In this document: piece by piece, positions 16,033 through 27,781 of the stretch
Layout: every line of letters begins with the position of its first letter
Position numbering within the stretch: the stretch's first letter is position 1
NCBI GenBank assembly: GCA_043809145.1
Contig: JAZDED010000013.1
Span: 1-63,915 of the forward strand
From: Candidatus Omnitrophota bacterium
GTDB lineage: Bacteria > Omnitrophota > Gorgyraeia > Gygaellales > Profunditerraquicolaceae
Direction of reading: 5' to 3'
DNA: 63,915 nt
Position numbers and translations under genes: made by a program
Notes under the pieces: model-generated
The model's input: the letters and a program-made list of their open reading frames with translations, nothing else
What the model was told of the DNA's origin: nothing
Database searches by the model: none

Positions 16033-16082
16033 AAATATTTACTCCGACTGCTGGTGGAGAAAAGTTGATAAATAAGGATTTA

Positions 16083-16162
16083 ACTCCAATAGCCAAGTAT
16101 CATATTATCGCTATTGGAGTAAATTTGCATATAATATAAAGATAGCAAATTTAGGAGGGTAG
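16083..16162 (+). repeat. Double-hairpin/SD leader element, copy 1 (before ilvE)
   Basis: ACTCCAATAGC..GCTATTGGAGT stem, TAAATTTGC..GCAAATTTA stem, then GGAGGGTAG. Confidence 0.85.
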
Positions 16163-16165
16163 ATA

Positions 16166-17035
16166 ATGAAAGTTTATATCAATGGCAAGTTTTACGAAAA
16201 GAACGAGGCTAAAATTTCGGTTTTTGACCATGGCCTGCTTTATGGCGATGGAGTATTTGAAGGTATTCGCGCTTATGGCCGCTTGGTTTTTAAACTGAAG
16301 GAACATGTAGAGCGTCTTTATGAATCCGCGCACAGTATTATGCTTAAAATACCCATGAGTAAGGATGAGATGGCAAAGGCTGTTGTGCAGACTCTTAAAA
16401 CCAACCATCTAAATGATGCTTATATCCGCCTGGTGGTAACACGCGGAGAAGGCGATCTTGGGCTTGACCCGCGCAAGTGTATCGGTCATGCCGCGGTGAT
16501 AATTATTACCGACAGAATAACCCTTTATCCGGAGAAATTCTACAAGCAAGGCCTGGAGATCATTACTGTGCCTACGGTAAGAAATCTGCCCGAGGCTTTA
16601 AATCCCCAGATAAAATCTTTAAATTATCTTAACAATATCCTGGCTAAGATTGAGGCGGTGAATTCCGGATACAACGAGGCTATTATGCTGGATTCGTTAG
16701 GGTATGTTGCAGAATGCACGGGTGATAATATTTTTCTGGTTAAAAGGAAACATCTCTATACTCCGCCGCAATGCATGGGAAGCCTGCGCGGGATTACCCG
16801 GGACGCGGTTTTAGAAATAGCCAGAAAGAGCGATGTGCCCGTACATGAACATGTGGTGACCCGGCATGAGGTATACATTTCCGATGAATGTTTTTTAACC
16901 GGAACTGCGGCTGAGATTATCCCCGTGGTCAAGGTTGACGGCAGGGTTATTGGTGAAGGTCGTCCAGGAAAAATTACCCTCGCCCTAATTAAGAAATTCA
17001 AGGAACTTACTAAGAGAGAAGGAGTAAGGTATTAA
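16166..17035 (+). CDS. ilvE: Branched-chain amino acid aminotransferase
   Basis: DHGLLYGDGVFEGIR, IKSLNYL (PLP Lys), ECTGDNIF, FLTGTAAEIIPV. Confidence 0.93.
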   Translation: MKVYINGKFYEKNEAKISVFDHGLLYGDGVFEGIRAYGRLVFKLKEHVERLYESAHSIMLKIPMSKDEMAKAVVQTLKTNHLNDAYIRLVVTRGEGDLGLDPRKCIGHAAVIIITDRITLYPEKFYKQGLEIITVPTVRNLPEALNPQIKSLNYLNNILAKIEAVNSGYNEAIMLDSLGYVAECTGDNIFLVKRKHLYTPPQCMGSLRGITRDAVLEIARKSDVPVHEHVVTRHEVYISDECFLTGTAAEIIPVVKVDGRVIGEGRPGKITLALIKKFKELTKREGVRY

Positions 17036-18597: not shown

Positions 18598-18638
18598 ACA
18601 GATATTCGAAACTGTCGCGGATAGGTAAAGATAATTTA

Positions 18639-18716
18639 GCTCCGATAGGTAAGTATTATATTATTGCTATCGGAGTAAATTGCTGCACCTATCGGTGCAG
18701 CAATTTAGGAGGGTAG
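18639..18716 (+). repeat. Double-hairpin/SD leader element, copy 2 (before clpC)
   Basis: GCTCCGATAG..CTATCGGAGT stem, perfect 14-bp TAAATTGCTGCACC/GGTGCAGCAATTTA hairpin, then GGAGGGTAG. Confidence 0.85.
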
Positions 18717-18717
18717 T

Positions 18718-21129
18718 ATGTTTAATCGTTTCACTGAAAGGGCAAGGAAAGTAATTATTCTGGCTAAAGAGGAAGCCAGGCGTTTTAATCACGATTACAT
18801 CGGGACCGAACATATTCTCCTGGGTTTAATCCGTGAGGGTGAAGGAGTAGCGGCTGTAGTCCTTGAAAAACTAGGGGCTTCTTTAGAGAATATACGTTTG
18901 GAGGTAGAGAAGTTGGTTCAGCCCGGTCCGGCAACCCAGATTATTGGAGACATACCTTTTACTCCGCGCGCGAAAAAGGCCTTGGAGCTGGCAGCAGAAG
19001 AAGCCAGAAGCCTCGGCCATAATTATATCGGCACAGAGCATCTTTTGTTAGGGCTTATTCGTGAAGAAGAGGGTGTGGCATCGCAGGTCATTTTAAATCT
19101 AGGTTTGGACTTGGAACAAGTTAGGAATAAGATTATGGAGGTTTTAGGTTCGGCTATTCCGGGATCGGACCAGAATCAGGCTAAGACTAAAACCCCTGCC
19201 CTGGATGTTTTTGGCAGAGATTTGATTACTTTAGCTAAAGACGATAAGCTTGATCCGGTAATTAACCGTAAAAATGAAATTGAACGGGTCATACAGATTT
19301 TAGGCCGCAGGACTAAGAATAATCCAGTATTGCTTGGAGAAGCCGGGGTAGGTAAAACTGCTATCGTGGAAGGTTTAGCCCAGGCTATTGTCGAGGGTAA
19401 TGTTCCCGAGGTATTAAGGCATAAGCGGATAGTGGTTTTGGATTTGGCTCTTATGGTTGCGGGAACAAAATATCGCGGACAATTCGAAGAAAGAATCAAG
19501 GCGGTTATGGAAGAAATCAAGCGTTCGCAGGACGTTATTATTTTTATCGATGAATTACACACTTTAGTCGGCGCCGGAGCTGCTGAGGGAGCAATCGATG
19601 CTTCTAATATCTTGAAGCCCGCTCTTTCGCGCGGGGAGATTCAGTGTATCGGGGCAACCACCCTTGATGAATACAGGAAGCATATCGAAAAGGATGCTGC
19701 TTTAGAAAGAAGGTTTCAGACGATTATGGTCGAGCCTCCTTCAATAGAGCAGACGATTGAGATTTTAAAAGGCCTGCGTGATAAATACGAGGCGCATCAC
19801 AAGGTAAGTTTTACCGATAGCGGCATTCAAGCAGCGGCTAAGTTTTCTGACCGTTATATCAGCGGTAGATTCTTACCGGATAAGGCCATTGACCTTATTG
19901 ATGAGGCTGGATCGCGGGCGCGATTAAATGTGCTAGTTGTGCCTCCGGAAGTTAAAAAACTCGAAGAGAAGATGGAGAATATTAGAAAAGAAAAAGAGAT
20001 TTTAATCAAGTCTCAGGATTTTGAAAAAGCTGCCGGATTAAGGGATCAGGAACGTCTCGCCCGCCAGGAATTAGAGGAACTTAATCGGGAATGGTCGCAG
20101 GCTAAGGATAAGATGCGTCCGGAGGTTAATGAAGAAGATATTGCCAAGATCGTATCGCAATGGACAGGGATACCTATCTTTAGGCTGGAGGAAAAGGAGA
20201 GCGAGAAATTATTAAAAATCGAAGACGAATTGCGTAAGCACGTAGTCGGGCAAGAGGAGGCTATATCAGCGATTGCCCATGCGGTCAGGCGTTCCCGCGC
20301 AGGCATAAAGGACCCTAAAAGGCCTATAGGTTCATTTGTTTTTTTAGGCCCTACGGGCGTAGGCAAGACTCTTTTAGCCAGGGCTTTGGCGGAATTCATG
20401 TTTGGTAATGAAAGTGCTCTTTTACAGCTGGATATGTCTGAGTATATGGAGAAAATCAATGTCTCGCGTTTACTTGGAGCTCCTCCGGGTTATGTGGGTT
20501 ATGAGGAGGGGGGGCAACTTACCGAGAGAGTAAGGCGCAGGCCTTATGCGGTAATTCTTCTAGATGAGATTGAAAAGGCTCATCCGGATGTTTTTAATCT
20601 ACTCCTGCAGGTTTTTGAAGAAGGAAGATTAACAGATAGTTTTGGCCGCAAGGTTGATTTCAGGAATACTATTGTGATTATGACTTCCAATGTTGGAGCA
20701 GAATTAATCCGGAAGAACAGCTCAATAGGTTTCCGTGACCATAAAGAAGAAGTAAATTACCAGGAGATGAAGGAGAAATTGCTGGAAGAGGTAAAACGCA
20801 CCTTTAAGCCGGAATTCTTAAACCGTATTGACGATATTATTGTTTTCAGGTCTTTAGTCAAGGAGGACTTACAGTGGATTGTAGATATCGAGATAGGTTA
20901 TGTAAACCAGCGTTTAAAGGAACATGGCTTATCGTTAGAAGTTACCCAGGAGGCCAAGGATTTGATTATTGAAAGAGGGTTCGATCCGGTTTTCGGAGCG
21001 CGGCCTCTAAAAAGGACAATCCAAAGGTTTTTAGAGGATCCTTTGGCGTCGGAGATAATTTCTAAAAAATTTAAAGAAGGCTCGCTGATCAAGGTTTTGC
21101 GTAAGGCGACCGAACTTTATTTTGAATAA
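18718..21129 (+). CDS. clpC: ATP-dependent Clp protease ATPase ClpC
   Basis: MFNRFTERARKV, two Clp-N repeats, GEAGVGKT and GPTGVGKT Walker A motifs, UVR coiled coil, FGARPL. Confidence 0.96.
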   Translation: MFNRFTERARKVIILAKEEARRFNHDYIGTEHILLGLIREGEGVAAVVLEKLGASLENIRLEVEKLVQPGPATQIIGDIPFTPRAKKALELAAEEARSLGHNYIGTEHLLLGLIREEEGVASQVILNLGLDLEQVRNKIMEVLGSAIPGSDQNQAKTKTPALDVFGRDLITLAKDDKLDPVINRKNEIERVIQILGRRTKNNPVLLGEAGVGKTAIVEGLAQAIVEGNVPEVLRHKRIVVLDLALMVAGTKYRGQFEERIKAVMEEIKRSQDVIIFIDELHTLVGAGAAEGAIDASNILKPALSRGEIQCIGATTLDEYRKHIEKDAALERRFQTIMVEPPSIEQTIEILKGLRDKYEAHHKVSFTDSGIQAAAKFSDRYISGRFLPDKAIDLIDEAGSRARLNVLVVPPEVKKLEEKMENIRKEKEILIKSQDFEKAAGLRDQERLARQELEELNREWSQAKDKMRPEVNEEDIAKIVSQWTGIPIFRLEEKESEKLLKIEDELRKHVVGQEEAISAIAHAVRRSRAGIKDPKRPIGSFVFLGPTGVGKTLLARALAEFMFGNESALLQLDMSEYMEKINVSRLLGAPPGYVGYEEGGQLTERVRRRPYAVILLDEIEKAHPDVFNLLLQVFEEGRLTDSFGRKVDFRNTIVIMTSNVGAELIRKNSSIGFRDHKEEVNYQEMKEKLLEEVKRTFKPEFLNRIDDIIVFRSLVKEDLQWIVDIEIGYVNQRLKEHGLSLEVTQEAKDLIIERGFDPVFGARPLKRTIQRFLEDPLASEIISKKFKEGSLIKVLRKATELYFE

Positions 21130-26963: not shown

Positions 26964-27014
26964 AAACTAGCGGAGTTTCGCTGGATGCGCCTAGCGGCGC
27001 ATTTTGGTGCTCAA

Positions 27015-27094
27015 GCTCCAATAGGGTGAGTATTAAACTATCGCTATTGGAGTAAATTTGGACACGAGAAAACTATGCAAATTTAGGAGGGTAG
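27015..27094 (+). repeat. Double-hairpin/SD leader element, copy 3 (before cysE)
   Basis: GCTCCAATAG..CTATTGGAGT stem, TAAATTTG..CAAATTTA stem, then GGAGGGTAG. Shares identical 22-nt and 19-nt blocks with copy 1. Confidence 0.85.
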
Positions 27095-27097
27095 AGG

Positions 27098-27781
27098 ATG
27101 ATTCTGACTTTTAATATAATATTTATCCTTATAATTTTATCTGTATTAAAAGTTGTCATACTTTCTTTTGTTTTTTCCGAGGAGATTGAGGCGGCAAAGA
27201 AAAAGGACCCGGCAGCCAAGAGCAGGTTTGAGATTATTTTGTTATATCCCGGGTTGCACGCGTTAATCATTTATCGTGTCGCGCATTTCTTATACCGCCG
27301 GCACATGTTTATTCTAGCGCGCCTCCTAAGCCAGATAGCCAGGTTTCTTACGGGTATCGAGATTCACCCGGGAGCCAGCATTGGTAGAAGATTTTTTATA
27401 GACCATGGAATGGGTGTAGTTATCGGAGAGACTACGATTATTCAAGATGATGTGCTTTTGTATCAAGGAGTTACGCTGGGAGGTTCTAGCCTAGAACATG
27501 GTAAACGCCACCCGACTATAGGCAATAATGTTGTTATCGGTACCGGAGCCAAGGTTTTGGGTAATATTATTATCGGTGATAATTCTTATATTGGGGCAAA
27601 CGCAGTAGTGATTAAGGATGTGCCTCCTAATTCCACCGTAGTAGGCGTGCCGGGAAAAATTACCAAGCAGGATGGCAAGAAGCTCGATGTGAATTTGGAC
27701 CACACACATGTTCTTGATCCGATAATGCAGAATATCGAGGAGATAGAGAAGAGGATCAAGGATTTAGAGAATAATAATTAA
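27098..27781 (+). CDS. cysE: Serine O-acetyltransferase
   Basis: [42 protein letters not shown]. Confidence 0.95.

Follow-up and report, generated by a model that had tools for sequence, protein, structure and literature searches.

A modular intergenic repeat with a putative terminal ribosome-binding site before functionally unrelated genes of an Omnitrophota bacterium

Three genes in a 63,915-nucleotide stretch of DNA from a Candidatus Omnitrophota bacterium (contig JAZDED010000013.1; hereafter the window, or contig C13) are preceded, directly before their start codons, by nearly the same leader of about 80 nt. What kind of element would stand before an ilvE-type, a clpC and a cysE-like gene alike? 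A first-pass annotation had offered two answers: a cis-regulatory RNA switch or protein-binding site for these three genes, or a miniature mobile element that donates a strong Shine–Dalgarno (SD) sequence. We examined the leaders in the genome of the window (G000), a metagenome-assembled genome (MAG) of 965 kb in 45 contigs, 66% complete and with 41% G+C, and in relatives (the other G numbers) drawn from other genera of the family and from a wider phylum set. On balance, the element is probably an undescribed, lineage-specific intergenic repeat, modular in the manner of BOX or repetitive extragenic palindromic (REP) sequences and co-transcribed as a leader or spacer, the terminal module of which supplies the gene that follows with its ribosome-binding site (RBS). 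Members of the repeat occur in several genera, and at least one further family of the class has it too.

A genome-wide family behind three leaders

All three copies lie where they had been placed, on the plus strand, each a few bases 5' of the ATG of a long open reading frame (ORF). Copies 1 and 3 share a 22-mer, TATCGCTATTGGAGTAAATTTG, and a 19-mer, GCAAATTTAGGAGGGTAGA, exactly as quoted in the first-pass annotation. The pattern CTCCRATAG-N14-22-CTATYGGAGTAAATT occurs exactly three times in the window (0.00 expected from 100 shuffles), as does AATTTAGGAGGGTAG (0.01 expected from shuffles), and mean column identity of the three-copy alignment is 78%. Each copy follows one plan: a first hairpin, H1, then a second element bounded by AAATT(T)...AATTT, then AGGAGGGTAG, with the ATG 1–3 nt further on. 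H1 has the form (A/G)CTCCRATAG...CTATYGGAGT, with a stem of 10–11 bp and an A/T-rich loop of 14–16 nt. The second element is A/T-rich and weak in copies 1 and 3 and forms a perfect 13-bp G+C-rich hairpin in copy 2. Pfam supported the ORFs named after copies 1 and 2, a class IV aminotransferase (ilvE-type) and a ClpC-type AAA+ protein; in the hexapeptide acyltransferase after copy 3, which is compatible with the name cysE, it matched only the Hexapep repeat. The features of the three copies are as follows.

16077-16162, plus strand: copy 1, followed by ATG at 16166
16083..16120, plus strand: copy 1 H1, ACTCCAATAGC...GCTATTGGAGT, 11-bp stem and 16-nt A/T-rich loop
16121..16152, plus strand: copy 1 module A or weak second hairpin (H2), with AAATTTG...CAAATTT closing stem (from alignment and folding)
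16153..16162, plus strand: copy 1 SD module, AGGAGG-GTAG; ilvE-type ATG at 16166
18633-18716, plus strand: copy 2, followed by ATG at 18718
18639..18676, plus strand: copy 2 H1, GCTCCGATAG...CTATCGGAGT, with a compensatory A-U to G-C change relative to copies 1 and 3
18677..18706, plus strand: copy 2 H2, G+C-rich, AAATTGCTGCACC-TATC-GGTGCAGCAATTT, 13 bp, pairing in the same columns as module A
18707..18716, plus strand: copy 2 SD module, AGGAGG-GTAG; clpC ATG at 18718
27009-27094, plus strand: copy 3, followed by ATG at 27098
27015..27053, plus strand: copy 3 H1 (from alignment)
27054..27084, plus strand: copy 3 module A or weak H2, near-identical to copies before pfk (C33:103280) and before an ORF at C33:104112
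27085..27094, plus strand: copy 3 SD module, AGGAGG-GTAG; ATG of the cysE-like acyltransferase gene at 27098

The element is far from confined to these three places. Searches of the G000 contigs by similarity, with an nhmmer profile and with a covariance model (R1), the last as the first-pass annotation had suggested, recovered 13 complete units (H1, H2, AGGAGG-GTAG and start codon) and about 20 partial or tandem units, spread over about 30 places in 12 contigs. The element stands before 17 or more genes of unrelated function. By Pfam or inspection these include genes for GAPDH (gap), pfk, clpP, clpC, recA, L27 (rpmA), yebC and an AsnC-type regulator, together with an ilvE-type gene and genes for a glycosyltransferase-like protein and several membrane or unknown proteins; serA-like and NifU-like products were named from the N-terminus alone. 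As no pathway is common to the downstream genes, a regulon-specific riboswitch is not indicated, and the proposal of an RNA switch or protein site for ilvE, clpC and cysE fares badly against this breadth of genes, the tandem arrays of the element and its absence from the same junctions in about half of the genera (see below).

The orientation of the element is uniform. At all 12 loci with an assignable neighbour it lies in-strand toward the next gene, before the start codon, and none lies inside an ORF; the random orientation expected of a plain REP was thus not found. An all-versus-all comparison of 343 intergenic regions found 57 that share repeats, and the repeat pairs had the same orientation relative to genes in 159 cases and the opposite in 7. 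This genome is itself strongly ordered: 847 of 929 neighbouring ORF pairs are co-directional, 93% of the sequence is coding, and the median inter-ORF gap is 16 nt, with 31% of gaps reaching at least 60 nt. Most contigs carry 93–100% of their coding sequence on one strand, tracking a GC skew of +/-0.12–0.18.

The affected intergenic regions consist almost entirely of modules concatenated head to tail in one direction, with the following sequences besides H1.

Module B: AAATATCYGTAGYTTAAGTATTTGGYAAGATATTT
Module A: AAATTTGGAYACAAGAAAAYTRKGCAAATTT, or alternatively a G+C-rich hairpin between AAAT and AATTT
Module T: GCGGAGTTTCGCTAGATGCGCC-TTCG-GGCGCATCTTGGTGCTCAAG
Terminal module: AGGAGG-GTAG(A)

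Modules B, H1, A/H2, T and SD combine variously, with one to three H1+A units per locus. Such a unit measures about 72 nt, and tandem runs of two or three are found ahead of recA, gap, clpP and the AsnC-type gene, as well as where contig C40 ends. Together with their T modules, the cassettes of cysE and pfk are about 93% identical over about 115 nt, which points to recent duplication or gene conversion.

Further modules accompany the copies in the window.

16033..16064, plus strand: degenerate CTCC/GGAG-clamped hairpin, AAATATTTACTCCGACTGCTGGTGGAGAAAAG, directly 3' of the stop codon of an ABC ATPase-like ORF and akin to B/H1-like modules
18612..18638, plus strand: left-hand module of copy 2, CTGTCGCGG...AAAGATAATTTA, common to C14:56550 and C40:60 and partly to C34:37100
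26970..27014, plus strand: T module before copy 3, GCGGAGTTTCGCT-GGATGCGCC-TAGC-GGCGCATTTTGGTGCTCAAG, a separate repeat module found elsewhere in the genome too

Stem pairing and the terminal Shine–Dalgarno module

Over the 13 complete units, H1 is 96% paired, with three pairs changed on both sides (G-C/A-U; A-U/C-G/U-A; U-A/C-G), and H2 is 76% paired, with six doubly changed pairs. None of 500 shuffles reached the observed covariation score, and shifting the partners destroyed the pairing. Because the copies are related by duplication, these counts of compensatory change overstate the number of independent events. Moreover, mismatch-bearing subfamilies occur at different loci (T-C at stem position 8; C-T or T-C at position 6), and such shared mismatches look like copying and not like selection for perfect pairing. 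The alternative pairings proposed earlier, of CTCC with the SD and of ATTTA/TAAAT with H1 or H2, are possible on paper; they involve invariant bases only and hence give no covariation signal. A pseudoknot between CCAAGU of the H1 loop and AUUUGG of module A was rejected, not being kept in copies with a G+C-rich H2, as was an upstream ORF from the TTG of module A, which is not conserved.

The conserved unit does not stop at the second hairpin. Among the 236 GGAGG sites with the start codon of a long ORF 4–11 nt downstream, 18 continue with GTAG, the next commonest tetramer occurring eight times. Nearly all of the 18 come after a repeat module (...AAATTT-A, ...GTGCTCA-A or ...GTACTCAA-A). From GGAGG to ATG the distance varies between 5 and 11 nt, which places the end of the conserved unit at GTAG(A) and makes the remaining bases locus-specific. 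Empty orthologous junctions in relatives read AAGGAGGAA; given this, and the conservation that runs from AGGAGG into GTAG, the SD looks element-borne. Of the two earlier readings, a miniature mobile element donating a strong SD is therefore the better fit as regards the donated SD, its mobility being something that we only infer. An extension of SD/anti-SD pairing by GTAG was considered and rejected, the 16S 3' end being the canonical GGATCACCTCCTTTCT in seven relatives.

Minimum-free-energy folds of most copies, in G000 and relatives, form both hairpins and leave AGGAGG free immediately 3' of H2. Over the ensemble, the SD is unpaired with a probability of 0.49, against 0.43 with the upstream part shuffled, which is no real difference; the idea that H2 keeps the SD open is accordingly unsupported. 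In the serA copy, the 5' H2 strand, CCCTCC, could base-pair with the SD as an alternative.

Known RNA families and operators do not account for the element. An Rfam search of the whole window at the gathering threshold returned only tmRNA and a tRNA, and in E-value mode the best match to copy 1 had an E value of 1.4, with no riboswitch, T-box or other family; nine further element-bearing loci gave only RNase P RNA. The first-pass annotation had likewise not recognised it as CIRCE or a CtsR box, and no match to either consensus (CIRCE, TTAGCACTC-N9-GAGTGCTAA; CtsR direct repeat, GGTCAAA-NAN-GGTCAAA) with up to three substitutions was found in or near the three copies. The sole CIRCE of the G000 assembly is perfect and stands before groES with a TTGACA-type promoter (C12:46994-47100, minus strand). 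A terminator scan found no terminator-like site at 16083-16162, 18639-18716 or 27015-27094.

Gain, loss and rival explanations

Scanned with R1, 40 relatives gave weaker matches in seven, with the same plan and genus-specific stems; across the phylum, weak matches appeared in 4 of 301 genomes, so that R1 itself is essentially specific to G000. The cassette of G020 reads ATCCCTCG...CTCGGGAT-CAATTTGC...GCAAATT-GAGGAGG and that of G002 reads ATACCCCC...GGGAGGTAT-AGATTT...AAATCT-AGGAGG. Cassettes of relatives precede groES, gap, acpP, an atpE-like gene (F0 subunit c-like, by inspection only) and others. The acpP cassette occurs in two genera (G010, G022), with compensatory differences between them, and the same plan was found in one genome of another family of the class (G348). 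In an alignment with MAFFT, the H1 arms of different genera fall one column out of register.

Two junctions, galT-gap (loci L052-L080) and mcsB-clpC (L088-L116), are syntenic in about 30 genera and allow occupied and empty sites to be compared. In about half of the genera, the junction consists of a stop codon, 0–40 nt, AAGGAGG and ATG. G000 has three H1 units before gap and one cassette before clpC, and gap of G020 has its own H1-H2. In the remaining genera the same junctions are filled by unrelated repeats, such as ACACCTGGCGC-type hairpins. Conversely, groES, hisI-like and aldolase-like genes carry a cassette in relatives and none in G000. Short, cassette-filled and otherwise-filled versions of a syntenic junction show that the cassette is inserted and lost again, and is no ancestral leader of these genes. 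The filled share of these junctions, about 45%, is only moderately above the 31% of gaps of at least 60 nt genome-wide and gives no strong sign that these genes attract cassettes. Other fillers are inverted blocks of 6–9 nt units (TGTCAGG, CGTAATT, TAAGTTG, CAAAAT, AATGACTAA, CGCTATACGCT), and to fill intergenic gaps with hairpin-forming sequence seems to be a general trait of the bacteria of this family.

Wider searches added no further occurrence. A junction pattern scanned against one genome per prokaryote species gave four matches in unrelated taxa and none in a relative, and against a metagenome collection two matches, none in a relative, of which one was inspected and had no cassette; these collections may leave out G000 itself and very near genomes, and we read the matches, too few in number for a shared family, as chance. 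An exact-protein look-up for strain-level alleles returned no record.

These observations suggest the following model. Short modules stand head to tail in the gaps between co-directional genes, and each array ends in an AGGAGG-GTAG that would act as the RBS of the following gene, the whole cassette being co-transcribed in an mRNA leader or intercistronic spacer. Without any pathway specificity, the cassette is gained, lost, tandemly duplicated and homogenised within a genome, presumably spreading by copy-and-paste or gene conversion. The native gap between stop codon and SD is only 0–40 nt in this compact genome, and an insert of 120–270 nt would abolish translational coupling. Only inserts that bring their own RBS in the right orientation would then survive, and we propose this survival as the reason why the remaining copies are SD-tipped and gene-ward. 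Both co-transcription and use of the cassette's SD are inferred. The AAATTT or AAATATTT palindromes between modules might be recombination or target sites.

Several results weigh against this model. Neither a transposase nor a terminal inverted repeat or a target-site duplication could be identified for the element, the ends of which share only CTCC/GGAG; the AAATTT that flanks the modules could be a duplicated target. The recovered 66% of G000 holds no Y1 transposase (PF01797). Owing to the extreme strand bias of the genome, gene-ward orientation is inseparable from replication direction. Mismatches in H1 on the sense strand comprise eight G-U and four A-C, counts that do not show which strand folds, or whether H1 folds as RNA at all. 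The modelled accessibility of the SD predicts no translation benefit from the cassette. Finally, the plan of two hairpins plus SD recurs from genus to genus and in a single genome from another family, and such persistence is equally compatible with a host function.

Some of these points would suit a mobile element that adopts an SD without bringing one. A single-strand DNA element of REP/RAYT or IS200/IS605 descent (IS, insertion sequence) might dock at SDs, its hairpins recognised by a Y1 (HUH) transposase, with a G-rich target, a native SD, an orientation set by the replication strand and only incidental effects on RNA. We consider this rather unlikely, although RAYT-like Y1 genes (160–230 aa) occur in 47 of the 61 genomes of the family, the elements consist of hairpins and have a conserved GTAG, their orientation is fully confounded with gene and replication strand, and gain and loss at orthologous sites fit such docking. 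The Y1 genes themselves do not point to the element: none is present in the recovered part of G000, and the flanks of eight inspected genes (including L117-L123; G020, G010, G014, G013) hold GGGACACCCT-type REPs or nothing recognisable, never H1. Nor does the GTAG lie directly 5' of a palindrome as in REPs, being 3' of the SD, at a distance of 6 nt from the H2 foot; the units are arrayed in direct tandem and not as inverted REPIN/BIME pairs, and an SD that looks element-borne is contrary to docking at a native one. A portable promoter cassette, with a -35-like TTAACT at the 5' foot of H1, a -10-like TAnnnT in its loop and tandem units acting as tandem promoters, appears very improbable. Copy 1 has TTAACT-17-TATTAT (9 of 12 positions matching), some cassettes come after terminator-like T modules, and arrays stand before genes expected to be highly expressed. 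However, the best sigma-70 matches of 22 sense H1 units average 7.3 of 12 (two of the 22 reach 9), near the 6.6 of antisense units and the 6.0 of ordinary intergenic windows, 9% of which reach 9. Canonical promoters are also in use, with TTGACA-17-TATACT ahead of a tRNA and TTGACA-17-TATAAT 5' of the two-unit recA array. In G020 (locus L035), an H1-H2 cassette is inserted downstream of the promoter, between CIRCE and the groES SD, and thus inside the 5' untranslated region. Positions 3' of such promoters speak for a transcribed leader. A promoter would leave the stem covariation unexplained, and the T modules of C45 and C8 run right up to the SD, with no room for one.

A host function remains to be weighed. 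In one form, a class-conserved factor (an endoribonuclease, an S1-like ribosome loader or another RNA-binding protein) would recognise the H1-H2 RNA of a host-encoded leader or gene-boundary signal and process it, stabilise it or load ribosomes, the copies being uniform through co-evolution; we hold this to be unlikely. It would explain why a pyrimidine/purine-clamped H1, an AAATTT-type H2 and an SD flush at its foot are kept across genera with genus-specific stems, and in the genome from another family; why the H1 loop is conserved in sequence (AGTATTA-N-AYTAT) beyond what a plain hairpin needs; and why the 3' arms in G002 retain GGGAGG despite a C-A mismatch. Cassettes in front of acpP and of gap, each in two genera, and an A/U-rich single-stranded tract adjoining the SD are also in its favour. 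Yet about half of the genera have nothing at the same junctions and others use unrelated repeats, the fill of about 45% only modestly exceeds the share of long gaps in the genome as a whole, SD accessibility shows no predicted gain, mismatch-bearing copies propagate, and no candidate factor was identified. Extended to a class-wide Omnitrophota device for plug-in ribosome loading or gene boundaries, the same idea seems to us of similarly low probability: a self-contained leader in fixed orientation at the stop-to-start gap, on which a dedicated factor would act as RNA or single-stranded DNA, with autonomous initiation replacing coupling, possible processing at the hairpin feet, and copies kept uniform by co-evolution with the factor.

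Likeness to known repeats, and further modules

Like BOX of Streptococcus pneumoniae (boxA-boxB(n)-boxC), the element is assembled from several short modules (Croucher et al. 2011, PMC3049150). In BOX, too, the internal module may be absent or tandemly repeated, the repeats are intergenic and lie near gene starts, stem-loops are predicted when they are transcribed, and distribution is lineage-restricted, related taxa having other module sets (PMC3049150). Copies of BOX nevertheless lie in either orientation and are enriched between convergent genes (PMC3049150), whereas the element described here is in-strand upstream of a start codon at 12 of 12 loci. Descriptions of BOX mention no terminal RBS for the following gene, and its proposed link to IS inverted repeats (PMC3049150) has no counterpart found for this element. 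The likeness is one of organisation and not of homology, and presumably does not extend to sequence.

The REP, BIME and REPIN sequences of Proteobacteria, which go with RAYT (Y1) transposases, resemble it in being short imperfect palindromes in operon gaps, present in many copies, gained and lost, and associated with a conserved GTAG. In REPs and REPINs, GTAG (or CGTC) stands directly at the 5' foot of an imperfect palindrome of 20–40 nt, and copies take both orientations, typically as inverted pairs. Here, GTAG follows AGGAGG 3' of H2, the feet of H1 read TTTA-ACTCC and GGAGT-AAAT, and the arrays are direct, tandem and of one orientation, unlike REPIN or BIME. Separately, the Y1 genes of G010, G013 and G020 have GGGACACCCT...AGGGTGTCCC hairpins on either flank, another REP pair that constitutes a classical REP-RAYT system distinct from this element.

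The Correia elements of Neisseria (CREE/NEMIS) share with it the character of a small non-coding, gene-adjacent insert that enters the transcript (PMC2649163), as our element probably does. They have 26-bp terminal inverted repeats, a TA target duplication and an integration host factor (IHF) site, and, by creating promoters or being cleaved by RNase III, can change how the neighbouring gene is expressed (PMC2649163). No 26-bp terminal repeats, TA duplication or IHF site were seen in our element, which is orientation-locked and SD-ended, as CREE is not (PMC2649163). The IS200/IS605-derived PATEs are likewise hairpin-ended, without terminal inverted repeats and oriented strand-specifically with respect to replication; in contrast, the modules here are exchangeable, and no TnpA/TnpB and no defined left and right cleavage motifs were found. 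Stabilising 5' stem-loops of the ompA type and A/U tracts that bind S1 are features of single-gene leaders. Their layout is similar (a stable hairpin, an A/U-rich tract and AGGAGG 5–11 nt from the ATG), and the element differs in being a repeated cassette and in not improving computed SD accessibility.

To our knowledge, a repeat family that is strictly gene-ward and has an RBS as its terminal module has not previously been described. We found no publication on repeats of Omnitrophota, and a recent review of prokaryotic miniature inverted-repeat transposable elements makes no mention of Shine–Dalgarno sequences or ribosome-binding sites. If the cassette supplies the RBS, it would illustrate how a selfish or semi-domesticated repeat can last in an extremely compact genome, by making up for the translational coupling that it destroys. 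For the annotation of Omnitrophota MAGs, such leaders are liable to be mistaken for riboswitches or regulons; the repeats break assemblies, and the SD modules help to fix start codons. A plan conserved across genera with lineage-specific stems would also be a testable case for a hypothetical trans-acting partner.

Other modules of the same intergenic regions were noted in passing. The T module is a hairpin, GATGCGCC-TTCG-GGCGCATC, followed by TTGGTGCTCAAG or GTGCTTTAAC and then by H1, or directly by GAGGGTAG and a start codon. Copies lie at 26970-27014 of the window and at C33:103300, C35:10000-10100, C45:23400, C19:1763 and C8:8560. Identification of this module as the boxB-boxA of an rrn leader was rejected, the likeness being loose and the clade's own rrn boxA being TGTTCTTTGACAA. 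Before pfk (C33:103300-103400, minus strand), the T module is split after ...TTTCGCTA by a 45-nt hairpin module, ATCCACGGGATAACCCTTCCCATACATTTTTTAGGGATGGGGTTA, that recurs after TTTCGTTA at C34:75450. It represents a nested insertion flanked by TA at either end or else one more module of this grammar.

Modules also meet genes directly. At C33:104157-104172 (minus strand), the TAA stop codon of the upstream ORF lies inside GAGTAAATTT, the start of an A+SD module, so that a repeat module appears to supply the stop of one gene and the SD of the next. The 3' end of the RNase P RNA gene (RF00010, 172.6 bits; C12:34598-35082, minus strand; L024:1689-2173) directly meets B-type and H1 modules, followed by yebC, indicating that the repeat fills gaps between RNA and protein genes too. 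At C35:17023-17456 (minus strand), TTGACA-N16-TATCAT forms a canonical promoter, after which a structured leader extends for about 150 nt; an AAATT...AATTT hairpin and AGGAGGGGG precede a 27-codon Cys/His-rich ORF, MDITIKYMLRPVAHCKEGCHHVSWVRR, that could encode a leader peptide or a microprotein.

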